64,000 nucleotides of DNA from an uncultured delta proteobacterium (lineage in GTDB: Bacteria > Myxococcota > UBA727 > VGSZ01): NCBI GenBank assembly GCA_963775425.1, contig CAVZJB010000016.1:512001-576000 (forward strand), in the 5' to 3' direction. The first letter of the stretch is position 1; every line of letters starts with the position of its first letter. This document shows, piece after piece, positions 10,402-38,637 of the stretch. The notes below the pieces were generated by a model, which saw only the letters and a program-made list of their open reading frames with translations, was not told where the DNA came from and did not search any database. A program made the position numbers and the translations under genes.

Positions 10402-11787
10402 TCAGCGGGCGATGCGATCGATGGCCCGGGCGAGATCGGAGGCGCTTCTCACCACGAAGATCGCATCGGCATGACGCGCGTACCGGACCATCTCCGAGTC
10501 GCCGAAGCCCCAGGTCCCGCGGTCCTCCGGAGACAGCCACAGCACCCGCCGCGAACGTCGACGGACCTCCCCGAGGATCCAGTCCTCCGGCGGCCGGTAA
10601 TTGCTGCGGCCGTCACCCAGGATCACGACCGTGGTCTTGCGGGTGAGCTGGCCGCCGCAGGCGTCCCAAAATGCCCTGAAGGCCCGCCCATAGTCCGAGT
10701 TCGCGCCGACGGGGACGACGTCGCCTCCGAGGATGGCCTCCACCGGGTCGCCGGCGCGCGAGGCAAACAGGGACGTCACCTCGCCGATGCGATCGACGAA
10801 GACGAACGAGCGCGCGCGCCGCAGGACGTCGGAGACGGCGCCCACGAGCTCGAGCATGAAGAGGCTCGCCTGGCGGACCGAGTCGCTCACGTCGCACAGG
10901 AGGATCACGTCGGGGCGCTCCGGGCGCTTGCGTTGCAGGTGCACGCGCATGGGGACCGCGTCGGTGGCGACGCTCGCGCGCAGGATGCGCCGGATGTCGA
11001 GGCGCCCGCGCCGCGACCGCCGCCGCCGGATCACGAGGCGGGCCTTGAGCTTCTCCGCGAGCCGCCGGACCAGCGCGCGCAGCTCCTCGACCTCCTCGGC
11101 CCGCACCGCGCGCAGGTCCCGATCGAGGAGCGATCCCTTGCGCGCGGGTCGGGCCACCGTGCGCTTGTCGTGCTCGAGCTCCACCGCGCGCCGGGCGGTG
11201 CGGCGCAGGCGCTCCTGCAGCTCCCACGCCGCCGACGCCAGCGCGCGATCGCGGGCGGCGTCGCCGGGCAGGAGGGCGGCGCGCGCGCGCATCAGCCGCT
11301 CCTCGACGCCGGTGTGGCCGAGCCGCGTGAGCACGCGCGACGTGAAGTACGCGATCTGCAGCGGGCTCTGCAGGCCCGACAGATCGCTCTCCTCGAGCGC
11401 CTCGCGCACGAGCTCGGTGAGGCGGGCGGCGTCGCCGGCGGCGAGGGCGCCGACGAGGTCCGCGCCCTCGAGCTCGCGGAGCACGGCGGCGATGTCCTCC
11501 TCGCCGAGCCCGCGCTCGCGCAACAGCGCGGCGAGGGGCTTGCCGGCGGCGGCGTCGAGGGCGAAGCCGAAGTGGAGGGCGAAGACCCGCTCGAGGATCT
11601 CCTCCTCGGCGGTCGACTTGGCGAGGGTGGCGGCGAAGACGGCGAGCGCCTGCTCACGACCCGCGAGCATGTCGCCGTCCGCGTCGAGGGCGAGCGCGCG
11701 GAAGCAATCGATGACCTCCTGCTCCGCCGCGCGCACGCCGTTTTTCCGCAGCGCCTCGCAGAAGCCGAGGATCCTCTCGACGCTCAC
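10402..11787 (-). CDS. CoxE-like VWA domain protein
   Basis: GRLDIRR, LLCDVSDS (MIDAS), SDYGRAF, ILGDGRSNY, WLSPE..WGFGDSEM. Confidence 0.88.
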   Translation of the reverse strand: MSVERILGFCEALRKNGVRAAEQEVIDCFRALALDADGDMLAGREQALAVFAATLAKSTAEEEILERVFALHFGFALDAAAGKPLAALLRERGLGEEDIAAVLRELEGADLVGALAAGDAARLTELVREALEESDLSGLQSPLQIAYFTSRVLTRLGHTGVEERLMRARAALLPGDAARDRALASAAWELQERLRRTARRAVELEHDKRTVARPARKGSLLDRDLRAVRAEEVEELRALVRRLAEKLKARLVIRRRRSRRGRLDIRRILRASVATDAVPMRVHLQRKRPERPDVILLCDVSDSVRQASLFMLELVGAVSDVLRRARSFVFVDRIGEVTSLFASRAGDPVEAILGGDVVPVGANSDYGRAFRAFWDACGGQLTRKTTVVILGDGRSNYRPPEDWILGEVRRRSRRVLWLSPEDRGTWGFGDSEMVRYARHADAIFVVRSASDLARAIDRIAR

Positions 11788-30453: not shown

Positions 30454-31067
30454 CCTGCGCCTCCCTCGTCGTCACGCTCGCTGCCCGCGGGGGCGGCGTC
30501 GGGCGCGGGCGGGGTGGCGACGTTCTCCGCTGCACCCTCGGCGAGGAGCTCCTCGCGCAGCTTGGCGCCCGCCTCGTGCCCCGCCTGCTGGATCGAGACG
30601 CCGGCGTCGGGCGCCTGCGCCACCGCGCGCACCAGCTCCTTGGCGCCGCGCTGCACGCGCACCGTGCACAGAAACGTGTCGCCGATGCGCGAGACGCTGC
30701 TCGCGACGATGAAGGCGGCGTCTTTGAACTTCGACGCGACGGCGTCGGGGCACGGGGCCTCGGTGCAGGCCGCGAGCTCGGCGCGCACGGAGGGCTCGTC
30801 GACGACGTCGAGGCCGCTCGTCAGCGCGACGGCGTCCCGCAGCCGGGCCGACAGGTCCTCGACGTTGAGCCCGGGCGCGTCGACGAGGTGCACGGCGGCG
30901 GGCGGCGCGTCGATCTTCGCGGCGGCTTCGACCTTCGGCTGCGGCGCGGCGGCGGGCGCTTCGGCCGCGGGGCCGGCGCACGCCGCGCCCCCGAAGAGGC
31001 CGGCCGCGAGCACGGCGGCGGAGAGCGCGGCCGCGCGGAGGGTGGAGACGATGAGCGGGAGGGGCAC
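30450..31067 (-). CDS. Hypothetical lipoprotein (CsgG/TolB-N-like alpha/beta pattern)
   Basis: Lipobox AAC; CTEAPC; IVASSVSRIGDTFLCTVRV. Start approximate. Confidence 0.55.
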   Translation of the reverse strand: MPLPLIVSTLRAAALSAAVLAAGLFGGAACAGPAAEAPAAAPQPKVEAAAKIDAPPAAVHLVDAPGLNVEDLSARLRDAVALTSGLDVVDEPSVRAELAACTEAPCPDAVASKFKDAAFIVASSVSRIGDTFLCTVRVQRGAKELVRAVAQAPDAGVSIQQAGHEAGAKLREELLAEGAAENVATPPAPDAAPAGSERDDEGGAG

Positions 31068-31146
31068 GGGCGAAGCATCGAGAGCGCCGGGCGTCCGGTC
31101 AAGCCCCGGGCGCGGCGGGGCCGGCGGGCCGCTGTATCGTCCGTCG

Positions 31147-31944
31147 ATGCCACGGCTCGACGGGCGCGCGCGGATCGTCACGGGGATCGTCACGGGGCTC
31201 CTCGCCGCCGCCTCCGCAGCCTGCGCCACCCCCGCTGCCGGCGCCACCCCCGCGGCGCCGCCCGCGCGAGCTGCGCCGACCGTGGTGGGGCCGGGCCATG
31301 ACGCCGTCGCACGCGCGCTCCCGGCGGCGCTGCGGCGGCTCAGGGCGCACGGCTTCGACGTCGATGCGCTCGCGCGACACACCCGCGTCGAGGTCCACCC
31401 CACGCTCGAGGGCTTCATCGCCGTCACCGGACAGGACGTGCCCGAGCTGCGCGCGTGGACCACCTACGACGTCGTGCACCTCGCACCGCTCCAGGCGTGG
31501 CGCCACCACGACGACGCGCACGTCGTCACGCGCCTGACCCACGAGCTGTGCCACGCCGCGCTCTATCAAGCGTTCGGCTCCGCGGCGCGCGCCCGAGACG
31601 CGCGCATCCCGGTCGCGTTCGCCGAGGGCGCCTGCTCGGTGGTCGCCGGCCAGGGCGGCGAGCGCGCGCCGCTCGAGGTGGTGCTGCGGCACGCGCCCGC
31701 GAACGCCCTCGATCGCGCGTTCTTCTCGATCGACCCCGCCATCGCCTACGCCGCCGCGCACCACGCGATGGCCTGGGTGCAGGCGCGCGCGCCGTCGTCA
31801 CCGTCGCTGTTCGCCGACATCATCCGGCGCGCGGCGAAGGCCGGCGGGCCCGGCTGCGTCGCGCGCGCGTTCGCTGCGGCAACCGGCATCGATCTCGCCG
31901 GGCTCTGGCCGGTGTTCGTCGACAGCCTCGGCCGGCGCACCTGA
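31147..31944 (+). CDS. Lipoprotein with gluzincin-like (peptidase MA) motif
   Basis: Lipobox AAC; THELCH followed by FAEG. Confidence 0.65.
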   Translation: MPRLDGRARIVTGIVTGLLAAASAACATPAAGATPAAPPARAAPTVVGPGHDAVARALPAALRRLRAHGFDVDALARHTRVEVHPTLEGFIAVTGQDVPELRAWTTYDVVHLAPLQAWRHHDDAHVVTRLTHELCHAALYQAFGSAARARDARIPVAFAEGACSVVAGQGGERAPLEVVLRHAPANALDRAFFSIDPAIAYAAAHHAMAWVQARAPSSPSLFADIIRRAAKAGGPGCVARAFAAATGIDLAGLWPVFVDSLGRRT

Positions 31945-32172: not shown

Positions 32173-32268
32173 GGCCCAAGCATCGAGCGTGGTGAGAGCG
32201 CCGCAAGCGCGGCCCGTTCGAGGCACACGTGTCCGCGCGTCCGTGCGGCGCGCGCTATGGTGCACACC

Positions 32269-33444
32269 ATGCCCTCGCGATCCGCGTTCGTACACGCGGC
32301 CGACGTCGTCGAACGCGCGCTCGATGGAGCCGCTTGCGGCGCCGCCCGCGTCGACGCCCGCTTCGGCAGCGCCGAGGTCTCGTTCGCCGGGCTGTCGCCG
32401 GCGCAAGCGGTCCACGCCGAGGCCCGCTTCGGCGCGCTCCCCCCAGCGGCCGCGCCCGACCCGGCGGTCCGGGTGCGGGTGGTGCGCGCGGCGCGCGAGG
32501 GCTTCGTCGAGATAGACACCCGCGGCTGGGACAACACCATGGCGCTCGAGCACGCGCCCGACGTCGTCGTCGTCGTGGGCCGCGACTTCGTCGCCCGCGT
32601 GGCGCCCGACGCACACGAGGCCACCGTGGCCACCTGGCTCGACGACGAGCACGTCATCGCCGCCCTCGAAAACCCGCTGCGTGTGCTGTCCGCCTACCTG
32701 TGCCTCGCGCGCGGGGGCGCGCTCCTGCACTGCGCCGGCCTGGTCGACGGCGGGGCGGCGCGGGTGTGCTTCGGCCCCTCCGGGATCGGCAAGTCCACGG
32801 TGGCGGCGGACTGGCTCGCCCGGGGCCGGAGCCTCCTGAGCGACGAGCTGTGCGCGCTCGAGCCCGAGGGCACGGGCTACGTCGTGGAGCAGCTCCCCTT
32901 CGCCGGCGACGTCGCCGCCGCCGTCGTCCCCGGCGCCCGCGTGCCGCTCGCGGGGCTCTCGCGCCTCGACCAGGGCCCGGCCTCGCGCGTGGACCCCATG
33001 GGCAACGCCGCCGCCGTCGGCGCCCTCCTCGCGTGCGCGCCGTTCGTCAACGTCGATCCGTTCCGCCGCGACGCGCTCTTCTCCTCGCTCGAGCGCCTCG
33101 CGCGCGCGCACCCGGTGTCGCGCCTCACCCTGCGCCTCGGCGACGATCCGCGCGTCGTCCTCGCGGGGATCGAGGTCGCTTCGCGCTTCGCGCTCGCCCA
33201 CGGCGTCCGCTACCGCGTCGTCGACGGAGAGGCGCTCATCGTGTTGCAGACGTCGGGCGAGGCCGTGGGGCTGAACGGCACCGGCTCGCGGGCCTTCGAC
33301 CTCGCCGCGCGCGGCGCCTCGTTCGCGGCCATCGTCGACGCGCTCGACGGCGAGCTCGACGTCGAGCGCAGGACGCTCGAGAGCGATCTGCGCAGCTTCT
33401 TCGGCGAGCTCGTCGGCGGCGGCCTGCTCGAGGTGCGCGCGTGA
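32269..33444 (+). CDS. HPr-kinase-like P-loop protein fused to a C-terminal PqqD/RRE domain
   Basis: LLHCAG, Walker A GPSGIGKST, LSDE; last ~90 aa GVRYRVVDGEALIV..LNGTGSRAFDL..LESDLRSFFGELVGGGLL. Alternative ATG at 32257. Confidence 0.85.
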   Translation: MPSRSAFVHAADVVERALDGAACGAARVDARFGSAEVSFAGLSPAQAVHAEARFGALPPAAAPDPAVRVRVVRAAREGFVEIDTRGWDNTMALEHAPDVVVVVGRDFVARVAPDAHEATVATWLDDEHVIAALENPLRVLSAYLCLARGGALLHCAGLVDGGAARVCFGPSGIGKSTVAADWLARGRSLLSDELCALEPEGTGYVVEQLPFAGDVAAAVVPGARVPLAGLSRLDQGPASRVDPMGNAAAVGALLACAPFVNVDPFRRDALFSSLERLARAHPVSRLTLRLGDDPRVVLAGIEVASRFALAHGVRYRVVDGEALIVLQTSGEAVGLNGTGSRAFDLAARGASFAAIVDALDGELDVERRTLESDLRSFFGELVGGGLLEVRA

Positions 33445-34466
33445 GCTACGCCGACGTCATCGAAAACGCCTGGAACAAGAACGTGCTGCTCGTCGTGCTC
33501 TTCGAGCTCACCTACGACTGCAACTACGACTGCGTCTTTTGCTACAACGATCGGTCCCTCGCGGGGCGCAAGCTCGAGCTCGACGAGTACCTGCGCGTGC
33601 TCGACGAGCTCGCCGCCCTGGGCGTGTTGAACGTGGTGCTGTCGGGCGGCGAGCCCATGGTGCACCCCCACTTCTTCGACATCGGGGCCGCCGCCAAAGA
33701 GCGCGGCTTCGTGGTGCGTGTGAAGACCAACGGGCACCTGCTCCGCGGGGAGGCGCTCGAGCGGATGATGACCGACGTGGAGCCCCTCGCCGTGGAGGTG
33801 AGCCTGCACGGGGCCACCGCCGCCACGCACGAGAGGCAGACCAGGGTGCCCGGCAGCTTCGAGCGGCTCGTCGACAACCTGCGCGAGGCGCGCGACGCCG
33901 GGCTCCGCGTGCGCATCAACAGCACGCTCACCCGCTTCAACGAGGGCGAGCTCGACGCCATGTTCGCGCTCGCCGCCGCCCTCGGCTTCCCGCTCACGGT
34001 GGACCCGGACGTGACGCCGCGCGACGACGGCGATCGCTCACCGCTCGCCCTCGCCGCCAGCGACGACGCCCTGCGCGCGCTCGCCGGCCGGGGGCTCGTG
34101 CCCGGCGTGCACCACGAGGCGTGCGACACGCGCACCGACAAGCACTGCGGCGCCGGGTCATCGGCGCTGTGCATCGACCCGGTGGGCAACGTCTACCCCT
34201 GCGTGCAGTGGCGGCGCGCGGCGGGCAACGTGCGCGATGGCGCGCTGTCCGCCCTGTGGCGAAGCTCGCCCGTCCTCGCCGAGGTGCGCGCGCTCACCGT
34301 CGACGTCAAACGCATGGTGCAGTCCCACGACGCCGGCGCGTTCATGGGCTTTTGCCCCGGAACGGCCGAGAGCCTCGGCGGCGACCCGCTCGCTCCGTAC
34401 CTCAACGCCCGGCGTCGCAGTGACGCCGCGCTCGTGGTGCGCGGCAAGCTCCGCGTGCTCGACTGA
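33441..34466 (+). CDS. Radical SAM peptide-maturase-like enzyme (PqqE-like) with Twitch/reduced SPASM domain
   Basis: CNYDCVFC (CxxxCxxC), SGGEP, TNG, CGAG...GNVYPC; GTGA-coupled to the RRE fusion. Confidence 0.92.
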   Translation: MSYADVIENAWNKNVLLVVLFELTYDCNYDCVFCYNDRSLAGRKLELDEYLRVLDELAALGVLNVVLSGGEPMVHPHFFDIGAAAKERGFVVRVKTNGHLLRGEALERMMTDVEPLAVEVSLHGATAATHERQTRVPGSFERLVDNLREARDAGLRVRINSTLTRFNEGELDAMFALAAALGFPLTVDPDVTPRDDGDRSPLALAASDDALRALAGRGLVPGVHHEACDTRTDKHCGAGSSALCIDPVGNVYPCVQWRRAAGNVRDGALSALWRSSPVLAEVRALTVDVKRMVQSHDAGAFMGFCPGTAESLGGDPLAPYLNARRRSDAALVVRGKLRVLD

Positions 34467-34474
34467 CGACGCGC

Positions 34475-34663
34475 TCAGCTCGAGATAGGTCCGCTCGGAC
34501 ACTGGCCGGGGTTGCCCTTGGCGGGAGGCGCCGGCGCGCACACCGCGGCGATGGCCTCGATGCGCTCGCGAAAGACCACGCGCGGCGCCGCGTACGGCTT
34601 CTTCTCGGGGTTGCCGCGGTTGTCCGGCGCTGTGTCCGGCGCGACCTGGGTGGGGGCCTTCAA
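34475..34663 (-). CDS. Putative RiPP precursor peptide (62 aa)
   Basis: TTG start overlaps the C25 gene stop (TTGA). Sequence MKAPTQVAPDTAPDNRGNPEKKPYAAPRVVFRERIEAIAAVCAPAPPAKGNPGQCPSGPISS, with a KKPYxxPxV leader motif. Confidence 0.75.
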   Translation of the reverse strand: MKAPTQVAPDTAPDNRGNPEKKPYAAPRVVFRERIEAIAAVCAPAPPAKGNPGQCPSGPISS

Positions 34664-37600
34664 CGCCGCCTCCGGCGCAGCAGCAGCGCGAGCCCGAGCG
34701 CGAGCGCCGCGAGGAGCGGTGCGCCGCCGCTCTGCGCGCAAGACGCCGAGTCCCCCGTGGAGGCGAGCGGCACGGTGGGGTCACCGAGCAGCTCTTCGGT
34801 GCCGAGGAGCCTCGCGTCGCCGCCGCCGTCGACGTACCCGCGCCCGGCGTCGACGAGGACGGCGCCCACCGTCCCGCCCTGCGAGAGCCGCGCGAAGAGC
34901 TGCGCCGCGAAATTGCCGGCGAGCGCGTCGCTGGTCTTCGTCGTGGGCGCGAGCGCGACGACGGCGCCGCCGGAGCGGATGAGGTCTTCACCGAGCCCCG
35001 GGAACGGAGCCAGCTCGAAGCGGTTGATGAGGCAGGTGAGCGCGAGCAGCGCCCACGGGCCGCGCGCCGCGAGCGCGTCCTCGTCGCGCGCCATCAGGAT
35101 GCCGTCGTTGCCGATGCGGTCCATGCCGCCGTGGCCGACGAAGGTCAGGAGGGACGAAGGCGCGAGGGCGTCGAGCACCGCGGCGCGCGTCTGATCCAAC
35201 GACGCGCCACCGGCCGACACCAGCGACGACGAGACCGTCACCTGCTGCCGCAAGCTCGCCGCCTCGGCCGCGAACGCGGCGCCGTCGCGCGGGCCGTCGG
35301 CGAGGAACGTGGCCGACGCTGGCCCGGCGAAGGCGCGCGCGCGCGCGAGGTAACCCTCGACGTCGGCCGCGCTGTGCGCCGGGATGCGGCCGACGGCGAC
35401 GTCGGGGACCCCGTCGCCGTCGACGTCGCCGGCCAGGGAGTCGGCGGCGGCCAGCCCGGCGCCGCCGGTCTGCTGGAGCAGCGGCGGGATGAAGTCCTCG
35501 TGCCGCCCTTGCACGTCGCGATAGTCGACGTCGCCGTCGCCGACGAAGACGGCGTAGCGCGGCGCGGGGCTCCAGCGCGCGACCGCAGCGGCGAGGAACC
35601 GGCGCAGCGCGCGGGGATCGGGGTCGCCGGCCGCGTACCGATCAAAGACGTCCTGCACGTCCACCACGCGGCTCACGAGCCCGCGCTCCGCGTGCCACGC
35701 GGCGAGGTCCGCCGCGGCGTCCAGGAACGCGTGGGGCGCGATGACGACGACGTCGGCGCCGCCGGCGGCGAGCGGGAGCGCGGGCCCCGCCGCGGGCACC
35801 ACGAGCGCGGGGCGCGCGCGCCCGTCCGCGAGCGCGAACACGCCGGCCGCCGGCAAGCGCGCGCGCAGCGCACCGTCGACGACGCGCGCGCCGGCGAGCC
35901 GCAGGAGCCGCCCGCCGTCGACGCGGTACAGCCACGACGACGCCGGCGCCCCGGCCAGCGCGACGACGTCCCCCGCCCCGCCCGCGAACACGCGCGGCGC
36001 CGCCGTGAGGGTGCGCTCGTAGTCGACGCGGACTGCGTCCAGGAACAGGGCGTTCATCGACACGCCGGGGTCGAGCACGGCGTCGACGGCGACGTGGACG
36101 TGGCCGCCGGCGACCGCGTCGGCGGGGAGGTCCAGCGAGCGCTCCACGCGGGCCACGCCGGAGAAGAACACGTCGCCGGCCGCGACGCCGTCGACGGTGA
36201 CGCGGACGTGGTGGTCGTCGGGCCTGCCCGCGTCGGTGGCGCCTTGCAGGGCGAGCGTGAGCCGCGGGGCGGCGCCGGCCTCGACGGCGCCGGGCGCGTC
36301 GACGTCGGTCTCGTAGTGGTCGTAGCCCGCGTAGCCCGCCGCGAGCGACGCGGCGAACCAGACGTCGGCGTTCGGGTCGAGGTCGACGCTGGTGCCGGGG
36401 AAGACGTCGTCGGCGCGCACCGCCGTGGCGCGGGCGCTGCGGCGTGTCACCGGCGCGACGCCTGGATCGGCGTCGACGACGCCCGCGCGCGCGCCGGCGG
36501 CCTCGGAGAGGAAGTACGTGCGCGCCGCGGCGAACGGGCTCGTCGAGCCCCGGCCCATGAAGACGAGCGCGCCGTCGCGGACGTCGACGGGGACGGCGAG
36601 CCCGTCGCTTTCGACCGCGATGTGCCCGTGGTCCGCGTCGTCGACGATGCGCTGCAGGGGGCGCTGAAGCAGCAGCGCGATCTGCGCGAGCGGAACGCCG
36701 ACGACGCCGTCGTCCTTCACGAGCACGCGCAGCCGCGCGGGCGGGCGAGCGCGCAACGGCGCCCCCGCGGACGGCAGCGCGGCGGGCGCGGCCATCATCG
36801 CGAGCTGCGGTGCGCCCGAGACACCGCTCCATTGCGGCGCGCCCCCGGCGAGGCTCGGCCCCCGCGGCAAGACCGCGCGCACGTCGACGACGTCGTAGGG
36901 GCCGTGCGCGGTGGCGTTGCCGCGCACGTCGTGCTCGGTGATGACGTAGGCCACCGCGCCGAACGCGGCCGCGTCGTCGTCGTGCACGGCGTAGGCGTGG
37001 CCCTCCGCGTGCATCGGGCTCGGCACCAGATCGCCGACGGGGGCGCGCTCGCCGTCTGCGCCGACGCGCTCGACGGAGAACCCGAGCGTGCCGGCCTCGC
37101 CGGCGGTGCGCCACGACACGTCGACGCCGCCGGGCGAGCGCTCCACGGCGACGTCGACGACGGACGCGTAGGTCTCCAGGCCCGCGGTGACCGCCAGCTC
37201 GCACAGCGGACCGAAGGTGAACGTGGCGCGCCCCTGCGTGCTGTTGCCGGTCTCGTCGACGTATTGCGCGGTCGTGCCCGCGGCCGTGGCGCCCGTGACG
37301 ACGATGCGCTCGCCCGCGGACGCCGGCGTGACGTCGACGTCGTAGGCGATGAGCGCCGTGGCCCCCGCTATGACGACGCCGGGGTTCCAGACCACGTCGC
37401 CCGCGACGCCCACGGCGGGGGACGTGGCCGTGCCCTGCGTGGCCGCGAGCGCACCGGCGAAGGACACGCCCGCCGGCACCGTCGACGTCACGGTGTGCGT
37501 GGCGGAGAACGTGATCGGCAGCGACGTCGGGTTCCGCACGCGCACCGTGACCGTGAGCGTCGACGTGCTCCCGGGCGCGGGCGGGTTCGGCCCGCCCTTG

Positions 37601-38637
37601 GCGCGTACGAATTGCTCGACGATGGGCTTCGCCGGCGCGGCGCCGCTGTCGCTCGGCAGGTAGAGGCGGAACGCGCCGGGCTCCGGTTGGTTGCGCGGGC
37701 TCGGCGGGTTGCCGCTGCCGGCCACCGCAGCGAATTGGCCTGCCACGGAGTAGGTAATGACGTTGGCGGCGGCGCCGCCGGCCTTGCGGACGTCGGCGGC
37801 GGCGGTCCACACGCCGTAGTTCTGCGCGGTGTTGTCGCTGGTGAACGGCGCCGACGCGTTGCTCCGCCAGACACCGTTGCCCGACACGTTCGTGAACGCC
37901 TGCGAGAAGCTCACGTTGCCGGTCAGCGTGTAGCTCGTGCCGGCCGCGCCGTCGGCGTCGAAGTCGTTGGAGGCGGCGGTGCAGCCGGAGGTCACCCAGG
38001 GGTGGAACGTGTTCACCTGCTGCGACGCGGTGGTAGGCCCGAGGCCGAGATAGCTGTCCGCGTACACCGGGATCTCGACGCCGCCTGCGCCGGGATCGCC
38101 GTCGTGGGCGCGGACGCCGTAGCCGGCGGTCTCGTCGCCGTTGTTGTTGGGATCGATGCGGAGCTCCCAGTGGCCCGCCGCGGGGTTTTGGACCGTCCCG
38201 AACAGCGCCGACCACGCGTTATCGACGCAGACCGCGGGCGTGTTGGCGTTGCTGCACACGACGGTGCCCCCCACCTGGGCCCCGCTCGGCGCAAACAGCG
38301 AGTAGGCCACCGACGTGTTGAACCGGCGGCCGGTGAGCAGATCGCGCGTGCCCTCCCCGTTGCCGCCGCGGCCGACGTCCGCGTCGAAGACCTCCACGAC
38401 GAGCTGCGAGAGGCCGGGCGGCACCTCGATGAAGAAGCGGTAGCTGTCGTTCAACGCCGGGGCCTGCGCGGTGCCGACCCAGTCGCCGCTCACGACCTGC
38501 TCGCCCGCGCCGTTCAGCCGCAACAGCGCGGTGGTGCTCGTGGGGTTGCTCGACGCAGCGGACGCCGCCGCGCACCACAGCGCCGCCACGGCGGGCGCGG
38601 CGCGGCACAGGGGGATCGGGAGCACAACGGAGCGCAC
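34660..38637 (-). CDS. Large secreted C25 (gingipain-like) cysteine peptidase with MYXO-CTERM-like anchor
   Basis: Signal peptide, beta-rich N-terminal domains, WRTAGEAGTLGF motif, VFVGDG, AVGRIPA, FVGHGG (His), LTC (Cys), LLGDP, tail SCAQSGGAPLLAALALGLALLLRRRRR. Confidence 0.88.
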   Translation of the reverse strand: MRSVVLPIPLCRAAPAVAALWCAAASAASSNPTSTTALLRLNGAGEQVVSGDWVGTAQAPALNDSYRFFIEVPPGLSQLVVEVFDADVGRGGNGEGTRDLLTGRRFNTSVAYSLFAPSGAQVGGTVVCSNANTPAVCVDNAWSALFGTVQNPAAGHWELRIDPNNNGDETAGYGVRAHDGDPGAGGVEIPVYADSYLGLGPTTASQQVNTFHPWVTSGCTAASNDFDADGAAGTSYTLTGNVSFSQAFTNVSGNGVWRSNASAPFTSDNTAQNYGVWTAAADVRKAGGAAANVITYSVAGQFAAVAGSGNPPSPRNQPEPGAFRLYLPSDSGAAPAKPIVEQFVRAKGGPNPPAPGSTSTLTVTVRVRNPTSLPITFSATHTVTSTVPAGVSFAGALAATQGTATSPAVGVAGDVVWNPGVVIAGATALIAYDVDVTPASAGERIVVTGATAAGTTAQYVDETGNSTQGRATFTFGPLCELAVTAGLETYASVVDVAVERSPGGVDVSWRTAGEAGTLGFSVERVGADGERAPVGDLVPSPMHAEGHAYAVHDDDAAAFGAVAYVITEHDVRGNATAHGPYDVVDVRAVLPRGPSLAGGAPQWSGVSGAPQLAMMAAPAALPSAGAPLRARPPARLRVLVKDDGVVGVPLAQIALLLQRPLQRIVDDADHGHIAVESDGLAVPVDVRDGALVFMGRGSTSPFAAARTYFLSEAAGARAGVVDADPGVAPVTRRSARATAVRADDVFPGTSVDLDPNADVWFAASLAAGYAGYDHYETDVDAPGAVEAGAAPRLTLALQGATDAGRPDDHHVRVTVDGVAAGDVFFSGVARVERSLDLPADAVAGGHVHVAVDAVLDPGVSMNALFLDAVRVDYERTLTAAPRVFAGGAGDVVALAGAPASSWLYRVDGGRLLRLAGARVVDGALRARLPAAGVFALADGRARPALVVPAAGPALPLAAGGADVVVIAPHAFLDAAADLAAWHAERGLVSRVVDVQDVFDRYAAGDPDPRALRRFLAAAVARWSPAPRYAVFVGDGDVDYRDVQGRHEDFIPPLLQQTGGAGLAAADSLAGDVDGDGVPDVAVGRIPAHSAADVEGYLARARAFAGPASATFLADGPRDGAAFAAEAASLRQQVTVSSSLVSAGGASLDQTRAAVLDALAPSSLLTFVGHGGMDRIGNDGILMARDEDALAARGPWALLALTCLINRFELAPFPGLGEDLIRSGGAVVALAPTTKTSDALAGNFAAQLFARLSQGGTVGAVLVDAGRGYVDGGGDARLLGTEELLGDPTVPLASTGDSASCAQSGGAPLLAALALGLALLLRRRRR

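Follow-up and report, generated by a model that had tools for sequence, protein, structure and literature searches.

A candidate family of RRE-recruited two-cysteine peptides encoded beside a radical SAM enzyme, an HprK-like kinase and a C25 peptidase

Sactipeptides, ranthipeptides/SCIFF and the QhpC/QhpD system all combine a small Cys-bearing peptide with a radical SAM enzyme that carries an auxiliary Fe-S domain, and all use recruitment by an RRE. The main text of Popov et al. (Nat Commun 2026, PMC13381572) describes linear polyphosphorylated peptides (LPP; LppA/K/B/S/D/N) in Bacillota, whose clusters sit in capsule loci beside paeninodin-type lasso clusters. Their leader, YxxPxVLxHQxIxFETxxS, has its Tyr at -16 and is cleaved after -1, and Ser3 is polyphosphorylated; the role of the YxxP-type motif in RRE binding is stated in the same text (PMC13381572). 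The targets given for LppK and BsfK are Ser3, 18 residues past the leader Tyr (PMC13381572, PMC10368454), where BsfK is described as acting together with BsfB1 (PMC10368454), and the HprK-like kinases PadeK, ThcoK and SyanK are described as phosphorylating an extremely conserved C-terminal Ser of lasso precursors (PMC9266682). Here we describe a 62-residue peptide encoded on the minus strand at 34475..34663 of a 64,000-nucleotide stretch from an uncultured delta proteobacterium (contig CAVZJB010000016.1; the whole stretch is called the window below). Around it lie genes for a radical SAM enzyme, an HprK-like kinase fused to an RRE, and a C25-family peptidase. We consider it probable, from the comparative evidence presented here, that the peptide is a precursor recruited by an RRE, in a hitherto undescribed family of peptides that are made on the ribosome and then modified by enzymes.

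As in LPP, the window contains an HprK-like kinase together with an RRE (although curated NCBIfam cut-offs are not reached), and 18 residues separate the leader Tyr from a key core residue. Over the 81 loci in which the presence of gene families was counted, an uncharacterised NTP transferase is nearby in 27, and here too the setting is that of a polysaccharide locus with lasso-type B1/B2 genes adjacent. Unlike LPP, the peptide family always has a radical SAM enzyme; the terms 'radical', 'SPASM', 'Acidobacter' and 'C25' are absent from the main text of PMC13381572. The short core of the peptide, which contains two Cys and ends in Ser, is strongly conserved, whereas the C-termini of LppA are variable in that description. 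The window has no gene for an SpI-like leader peptidase, neither an NTP transferase nor an MsbA-type exporter is found among the nine scanned window genes around the peptide, and the frequent peptidase partner is C25. The hosts also differ, being Acidobacteriota and Myxococcota-type genomes here and, as the main text has it, Bacillota for LPP.

The other obvious comparison is with phosphorylated lasso peptides of the paeninodin or Bsf type. An HprK-like kinase, a conserved C-terminal Ser (here in 215 of 220 family members), a Y/WxxP leader and a B1-type RRE are all shared with the paeninodin-type systems described in PMC9266682, the RRE of the window is closest to lasso B1 proteins, and B2-like and second PqqD genes occur in 22 of the 81 loci. 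Yet it is highly improbable that the peptide is itself a lasso precursor. Its core, AVCAPAPPAKGNPGQCPSGPISS, has no Asp or Glu that could act as the acidic acceptor of a macrolactam, and the leader has no Thr at -2. No ORF (open reading frame) of the window falls in the B2 cluster, and the nine scanned window genes around the peptide include no B2 or cyclase family. In locus L108, the 589-residue protein beside B2 has no Pfam or NCBIfam match, and the constant partner of the peptide is a radical SAM enzyme.

With the radical SAM thioether peptides the system shares a Cys-bearing peptide, an enzyme with an auxiliary cluster and an RRE, and SkfB and CteB are among the nearest solved sequences. 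It is unlike them in having one auxiliary cluster, an RRE outside the radical SAM protein and an added kinase, and a thioether in this peptide is a guess. The combination of an HprK-like protein, a PqqD-family chaperone and a radical SAM/SPASM enzyme is found in SynChlorMet (ScmC/D/E/F) and GeoRSP, and a chaperone, a radical SAM enzyme and a conserved small peptide are found in mycofactocin (MftA/B/C); these give the top NCBIfam matches. However, the NCBIfam matches of the two window enzymes (MftC, NirJ/AhbD, StsB, GeoRSP, the SCM cassette and HprK_rel_A) are all far under cut-off: MftC scores 122.7 bits against 265, PqqE 86.8 against 381, GeoRSP_rSAM 95.3 against 400, ScmC 15.6 against 125, geo_PqqD 16.6 against 100 and HprK_rel_A 24.6 against 200, and the peptide matches no precursor model. 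Since defining features of LPP, lasso peptides, sacti/ranthipeptides, mycofactocin, SCM and GeoRSP are lacking in each case, the system is, as judged from its genes, a member of none of them and a new variant of RRE-dependent peptide maturation.

The peptide gene and its family

An earlier note, made from the sequence of the window, had proposed that this easily missed ORF is a genuine small gene, and the strings that it quoted (KKPYAAPRV, FRERIEAIAA and a C-x12-C core) are all present in the minus-strand translation. Translated over 34741..34475, the minus strand gives ...NPEKKPYAAPRVVFRERIEAIAAVCAPAPPAKGNPGQCPSGPISS*. From the TTG at 34663, taken as Met, the product is MKAPTQVAPDTAPDNRGNPEKKPYAAPRVVFRERIEAIAAVCAPAPPAKGNPGQCPSGPISS, that is, 62 codons followed by a stop, and the ORF ends in Ser-Ser-TGA (TGA at 34477-34475). 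The ORF lister starts it at TTG 34741 (88 aa), within the C25 gene, and the earlier note had considered TTG 34663 the likelier start. We agree: this TTG overlaps the C25 stop (TGA, 34662-34660) as TTGA, 34663-34660, and is preceded by a ribosome-binding-like GGAGG on the same strand (34669..34673), 5 nt upstream. The 88-residue version was rejected, as it begins inside C25, its extra residues are an out-of-frame C25 tail and family lengths centre on ~60, while the next in-frame start, GTG 34579, would lose the YxxP motif. In the related genome G001 the GTG start of the peptide gene overlaps the C25 TGA likewise (GTGA). We therefore treat TTG 34663 as the best start of the gene. An identical 62-residue product is already present among public proteins (P0003).

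The coding statistics are consistent with a gene in this frame. In a window of 73% G+C, the GC content by codon position in 34500-34650 fits the peptide frame (~0.94 at position 3, 0.58 at position 2). For the comparison between loci, 72 of 80 sequences were kept, the other eight being off the motif pattern through a changed residue or spacing. Over these 72 distinct coding sequences the entropy at codon positions 1, 2 and 3 is 0.55, 0.42 and 1.19 bits, and 57% of codon differences are synonymous in the peptide frame; the figure is 43% for the antisense frame with the same wobble positions and 6-15% for the remaining four. A chance ORF was rejected on conservation and codon statistics; with its homologues and its excess of synonymous changes, 34475-34663 is a real gene under purifying selection. 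A search for sequencing runs listed no holder of RNA reads and a single DNA run, with a word share of 0.08. A scan of 33900-35100 gave neither a promoter-like nor a terminator-like site. Because of this, together with the start/stop overlap and the GGAGG, the simplest reading is that the peptide gene is transcribed together with the C25 gene upstream of it and coupled to it in translation.

Searched against 41 relatives, the 62-residue query has three true homologues (G001, 2e-14; G011, 4e-7; G016, 5e-6), the next match being at 0.07. The G+C content of G011 and G016 is only 46-49%, so the conservation of the peptide is not a by-product of composition. A four-sequence profile retrieved 72 proteins at E<=0.01 from 108 candidates, all of 46-101 residues, unnamed or 'hypothetical' and without a Pfam domain, and in species-representative genomes a relative is encoded in 102 of 169 candidate stretches. 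The 80 loci that were kept are nearly all from Acidobacteriota (Thermoanaerobaculia, Holophagales, Blastocatellia), with a few from Myxococcales or from 'Deltaproteobacteria' metagenome-assembled genomes. In the phylum of the window just 8 of 401 sampled genomes gave a match, and the two weak phylum matches L027 and L028 (from G265 and G110) have no tblastn match to the window peptide. A HMMER search over 1.84 billion representatives found 607 cluster representatives at E<=0.001, 94 of them at E<=1e-10. The window peptide matches no Pfam or NCBIfam model, 73 members gave just two stray single matches (E 0.035 and 0.13), and its 30 nearest clusters in the protein atlas are all unnamed hypothetical proteins. 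In the literature searched, the family is nowhere described and its core motif strings are absent, GPISS occurring only in unrelated papers; the supplementary tables of PMC13381572 (SpI network, co-occurrence) could include related clusters.

The anatomy of the family was obtained from 220 distinct members, over which landmarks were counted, and from an alignment of 73 sequences, in which residue conservation was read. The N-terminus is hydrophilic and variable in both length and sequence, and conservation begins at [K/R][K/R]P-[Y/W]-x-x-P, the start of a leader consensus that continues to [K/R][K/R]P-[Y/W]-x-x-P-x-[I/V]-[L/I/V]-x-R-E-x-L-E-A-x-A. In the window this segment is K22-A39 (KPYAAPRVVFRERIEAIA, 34547..34600, minus strand), with Y24-x-x-P27 followed by R32, E33, E36 and A39. 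The [Y/W]xxP element is the most conserved feature of the leader (218 of 220 members), and the window version, Y24-A-A-P27-R-V, agrees with the motif [Y/W]xxPx[L/V/I/F/A] as defined in PMC13381572. The earlier note had taken YxxP for an RRE-type leader motif, and its conservation, the adjacent PqqD-type RRE, an RRE-peptide fusion (P0159, see below) and the role given to such motifs in the main text of PMC13381572 support this.

The putative core, A40-S62 (34478..34546, minus strand), would begin after A39. It contains C42 (codon 34540-34538) and C55 (codon 34501-34499), numbered from TTG 34663 and separated by 12 residues, then G58-P59-I60 and the terminal S62 (codon 34480-34478), with K49 between the two Cys. 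These landmarks are close to fixed: a Cys lies exactly 18 residues past the Tyr/Trp in 219 of 220 members, 216 of 219 have neither more nor fewer than two Cys, 217 of 220 have a Lys between them, and the last residue is Ser in 215 of 220 (otherwise Thr in two, Arg in two and Pro in one). The loop between the Cys has 7-18 residues in all sequences but one (32 residues there), 12 being the length in 120 of them; beyond the second Cys there are 7 residues in 187 members and 5 in 20. Invariant in the alignment are P27, E36, A39, C42, K49, C55, G58, P59, I60 and S62, and Y24, I29, R32, E33 and L35 are nearly so. A search for conservation of YxxP and Cys in homologous loci had been named beforehand as a test of the earlier proposal, and both are conserved, the two Cys almost universally. 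Its remark that the peptide ends in Ser-Ser holds for the window ORF and does not extend to the family, where the penultimate Ser varies and only the final one is kept.

The radical SAM enzyme and the kinase-RRE protein

The radical SAM enzyme (33441..34466, plus strand, 341 aa) matches Pfam Radical_SAM at 4e-23 and has a partial SPASM match over residues 236-283 (2.5e-6). Its CX3CX2C motif (C27/C31/C34) and just three further Cys (C236, C254 in a G-x4-C motif, and C305) are conserved in 64 of 64 sequences. Because only these three auxiliary Cys are conserved, the enzyme is read as having one auxiliary cluster; a full SPASM domain, with seven Cys and two auxiliary clusters, is not present. The nearest solved relatives are PqqE (6c8v, 9e-18), BlsE, SkfB and CteB. 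The auxiliary cluster of CteB has an open iron site, and by analogy the cluster considered here, if it is 4Fe-4S, may have one as well.

Upstream of this enzyme, its stop overlapping the radical SAM start, lies the gene of a 395-residue protein (32257..33444, plus strand) in which an HprK-like P-loop kinase domain (residues ~1-300) is followed by a PqqD-type RRE (~301-395; DNA 33157-33441). It matches Pfam PqqD at 3.7e-8 and NCBIfam HprK_rel_A at 1.2e-5, the latter under cut-off. The kinase domain has an invariant P-loop, GxSGxGKxT, and the invariant residues H158, G173, G178, K179, T181, S195 and D196. In an AlphaFold2 model (mean pLDDT 81.9) confidence exceeds 90 over most of residues 1-300 and is low over the RRE part, and the fold of the kinase matches ATP-PEPCK (2.5e-8) and HPr kinase/phosphatase (1knx, 3e-4; 1kkl, 5e-4, TM 0.51 on target). 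PEP carboxykinase and HPr kinase share a P-loop fold.

The best solved relative of the RRE is the lasso RRE TbiB1 (5v1u, 9e-7). In the window the small ORF adjoins this PqqD-type RRE gene, in that the RRE belongs to the operon converging on the peptide. Prediction of a complex between the RRE domain and the peptide gave a score of 0.50, the best of three controls giving 0.00; like complexes have been solved, and the score may reflect likeness only. The runs agree in at least 93% of contacts, with a partner pLDDT of at least 53. Of 80 solved complexes 58 pass the mark applied, as do 2 of 110 mismatched pairs; among those that pass, only 7 of the 80 solved complexes but both mismatches score 0.60 or less.

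Gene order, the C25 peptidase and fusion proteins

In 59 of the 73 loci with at least 1,200 nt downstream, a radical SAM orthologue runs convergently within 800 nt of the peptide gene, with the PqqD gene and the HprK-like gene behind it. ORF clustering is noisy, as antisense ORFs of conserved genes form clusters of their own, and the counts taken from it are lower bounds. As a rule the RRE has a gene to itself; by blastp criteria the window is the only one of the 81 loci with HprK-like and PqqD parts in one ORF. Both junctions of the system in the window are 4-nt start/stop overlaps, GTGA between kinase-RRE and radical SAM (33441-33444) and TTGA between C25 and peptide (34660-34663), and the stops of the convergent peptide and radical SAM genes are 8 nt apart.

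Across genomes the peptide and the radical SAM enzyme go together. Among the 41 relatives, radical SAM orthologues (E<=1e-70) occur solely in G000, G011 and G016, and all three carry the peptide; all five tested genomes that have no radical SAM gene near the peptide have exactly one orthologue elsewhere (E<=1e-74). The gene order is less constant. In two genomes, G050 and G084, peptide gene and operon are arranged divergently, and the C25 gene of G050 comes after the peptide. In G016 the order is M3 peptidase, HprK, PqqD and radical SAM, and the convergent peptide gene adjoins a YdcZ exporter gene; in this locus (L110, G016:C126, 3836-8931) the M3 oligopeptidase gene (1e-130) overlaps the HprK-like start, YdcZ is of the DMT type, and 18 kb contain no C25. 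In G001 the peptide gene is on a contig of 1.8 kb, at whose end an SpI-like fragment lies directly downstream of it. We read the link between peptide and enzymes as surviving rearrangement, be it divergent, co-directional or without C25.

The genome of the window itself contains a paralogous system (contig C8 of G000, L115:7421-11209, minus strand) with all genes co-directional. A 58-residue ORF (11030-11206; ...SPYKPPAIVSSETYERLALGC...C...LGAS*) has YxxP, a Cys 18 residues past its Tyr, two Cys in all, and Ser as its last residue. It is followed by an HprK-like gene, a radical SAM/SPASM gene, a methyltransferase-like gene and an S24/S26-like peptidase (GGSM). The radical SAM protein matches that of the window in tblastn at 8.6e-38 with 33% identity, and in a second search at 9.4e-42 with 38%. 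Since this system is co-directional, convergent order is not essential, and the features of the second system support the class-level reading.

These observations also bear on whether the peptide is modified at all. Convergent, nearly abutting genes, such as the window pair and those of most loci, might be expected if the peptide were a conserved small cytoplasmic protein that stays unmodified and owed its position to shared regulation or to antisense control by convergent transcription. This appears improbable. The peptide and the radical SAM enzyme co-occur at the level of genomes, and their link is kept in divergent and co-directional arrangements; moreover, the peptide has an RRE-type leader motif in a fixed register and, as in leaders, a hydrophilic N-terminus of variable length, and it is found fused to an RRE.

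The C25-family peptidase upstream of the peptide (34660..38637, minus strand) has 1325 aa when its longest ORF is taken (Pfam Peptidase_C25, 1e-43), and the peptide gene is coupled to its 3' end. Its PorU-type NCBIfam matches are under cut-off. At its C-terminus a Cys is followed by a hydrophobic stretch and RRRRR, a tail that we take to resemble MYXO-CTERM-type sorting tails; no such model was listed by the scan. The acidobacterial C25 proteins beside the peptide (L029-L108) are without the hydrophobic/RRRRR tail, and most end in a conserved ...LLGDPAL...SGE. A C25 gene is present in the fetched flanks of 47 of 81 loci; in 26 of 70 it immediately precedes the peptide gene on its strand. We regard it as part of the peptide system, and not merely as a neighbour.

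Several database proteins join the peptide to its partners. In P0159 the peptide continues in frame from a PqqD domain (5.5e-13). The 1426-residue P0182 consists of a C25 peptidase, a hydrophobic segment, RRKRK and then the peptide from PY, and P0153 shows the same join of C25 tail and peptide, so that in these two the peptide would lie on the cytoplasmic side of the C25 anchor. In a further C25-peptide join, P0109, the linker is odd and looks out of frame. The fusions would tie the peptide independently to the RRE and to C25, but they are single database proteins and may be assembly or gene-calling errors. A read-through fusion with C25 in Acidobacteriota was also considered and dropped, as a single stop with the frame kept separates the two genes in 4 of 34 adjacent pairs, which is no more than expected by chance.

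The strength of the C25 association raises the question of whether the peptide is mainly a partner of the peptidase, be it as a small subunit, as a regulator (inhibitor or prodomain-like) or as a cytoplasmic tail that has become detached, with the radical SAM enzyme and the kinase modifying it for that role or being secondary. The start/stop overlap with C25 in both G000 and G001, the lack of a promoter-like site for the peptide gene itself, the frequency of C25 in the loci (47 of 81, 26 of 70 directly upstream), its position after the peptide in the rearranged G050 locus, the in-frame fusions P0182 and P0153, and two C25-peptide pairs (L061, L097) with no radical SAM gene within 10 kb all point this way. 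We nevertheless think this unlikely, since G011 and G016 have the peptide with kinase, RRE and radical SAM enzyme and no C25 in 11.7 and 18 kb, 34 of 81 loci have no C25 within the flanks, and in none of the 34 loci with an adjacent C25 are the two fused. The RRE motif in the leader and the RRE-peptide fusion P0159 tie the peptide to another partner, and the C25 fusions are subject to the reservations given above, including the linker of P0109.

In other loci a different peptidase is found. In 25 of 81 loci the gene immediately upstream of HprK encodes an SpI-like protein of 120-200 aa; of 15 members scanned, eight match Peptidase_S24 (best 5e-6) and one sigpep_I_arch. They share the motif G-x-C-M-A-P ... 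H-R-L-L-G ... G-D of an S24/S26 fold (alignment A3; e.g. L108:12604-13197, L071:12467-13036). The nucleophile site, usually Ser, is Cys in 13 of 15 aligned rows and Ser in one, and one row could not be aligned there; the protein may be a Cys/His variant of the SpI-like leader peptidases. The A3 profile found none in the window, its best match in G000 lying on another contig. Frequent neighbours in related loci also include NTP_transf_5 (27 of 81), lasso-B2-like, second PqqD, Wzy_C (O-antigen-ligase-like) and Bac_transf genes. In L108 (13344-17929) and similar loci, lasso-type B2 (4.5e-18), PqqD (1e-16), HprK_rel_A-like and NTP_transf_5 genes lie upstream in the same orientation; a conserved protein of 500-590 aa without a family match stands beside the B2/PqqD set in 23 of 81 loci, and no recognisable lasso cyclase was found in loci of this type. 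In the window, the ORF upstream of the kinase-RRE gene (31051-31944, plus strand, 297 aa) has a lipoprotein-like N-terminus and an HExxH motif, HELCH. It has no Pfam or NCBIfam match and no tblastn match in related loci, and may encode an unrelated secreted metalloprotease.

A proposed maturation pathway and its meaning

The fusion of the HprK-like kinase with the RRE, the near-invariant C-terminal Ser, the 18-residue register from Tyr to Cys, the convergent gene order and the tie to C25 all go beyond the earlier note. Together with the RRE-type leader and the two Cys they allow a maturation pathway to be proposed. The peptide would be translated together with the C25 peptidase, and the RRE, here fused to the kinase, would bind the YxxP leader. 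The kinase domain would then phosphorylate S62, much as PadeK, ThcoK and SyanK act on lasso precursors; S62 is proposed because it is the only conserved Ser, and by this analogy the kinase probably phosphorylates the C-terminal Ser. The radical SAM enzyme would act on the Cys-bearing core, our leading guess for its product, by analogy with known maturases, being one or two thioether cross-links from C42 and/or C55. The earlier note had taken the two Cys for putative donors of sactionine or ranthionine bridges, or for a disulfide pair; the enzyme, with its three conserved auxiliary Cys, does not have the full SPASM set. Finally, the leader would be cut off, possibly after the invariant A39 in A37-x-A39, a signal-peptidase-like pattern. 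Cleavage at this point, which would make C42 core residue 3, follows from mapping the LppA register (Y-16, cut after -1, S3) onto the peptide. The leader peptidase may vary with the lineage: it would be C25 here, M3 in a single lineage, and the S24/S26-type SpI-like protein in roughly one locus in three.

Several observations weigh against this pathway. The system is patchy, as nine of ten other genomes from the taxonomic family of the window gave no peptide match. For a precursor gene a convergent orientation is unusual, and polymerases transcribing the two units would run into each other, the stops being 8 nt apart. The window lacks an exporter, and its locus is not accompanied by SpI-like, nucleotidyltransferase or glycan genes. 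With a secretion-type N-terminus and a C-terminus like a membrane anchor, C25 could reach a cytoplasmic peptide only once that peptide had been exported. The position that LppK and BsfK phosphorylate (LppA Ser3) is occupied in this family by Cys (219 of 220) and not by Ser. The analogy with sacti- and ranthipeptide maturases is loose, because the auxiliary domain is not a full SPASM. Every HprK-like and radical SAM match to curated families is under cut-off, and the predicted RRE-peptide complex gives weak support only.

If the peptide is such a modified precursor, its conserved core, its single copy per locus and its polysaccharide and C25 context suggest a physiological, envelope-linked product rather than a variable antibiotic. 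A more specific reading, which we offer tentatively and as rather unlikely, is that the modified peptide is directed to the envelope and works with the surface C25 peptidase (PorU-like), in some lineages as its cytoplasmic tail, and that its Cys-cross-linked loop with a phosphorylated C-terminal Ser serves as a peptide-derived cofactor, or as a covalent handle or primer linking protein sorting to polysaccharide assembly. Were it true, it would name a long-missing type of substrate for orphan 'HprK-like + PqqD + rSAM' cassettes.

The peptide would represent a large precursor family (607 cluster representatives) that has no Pfam or NCBIfam model and belongs mainly to Acidobacteriota, a soil phylum whose chemistry is hard to reach. 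Its maturation would join two separately described logics, an RRE-guided HprK-type peptide kinase, as in LPP and phosphorylated lasso peptides, and a radical SAM enzyme, and would add to them a recurrent C25 peptidase partner. It also provides a concrete candidate substrate for those kinase/PqqD/radical SAM cassettes whose entries in curated databases have no known peptide. The fixed landmarks of the family, a Tyr-to-Cys distance of 18, two Cys, a Lys between them and a terminal Ser, give sharp mutational predictions, and the conservation of the core suggests that these bacteria use the peptide in their own physiology, as a cofactor or in an envelope or polysaccharide function, and not as a variable toxin.

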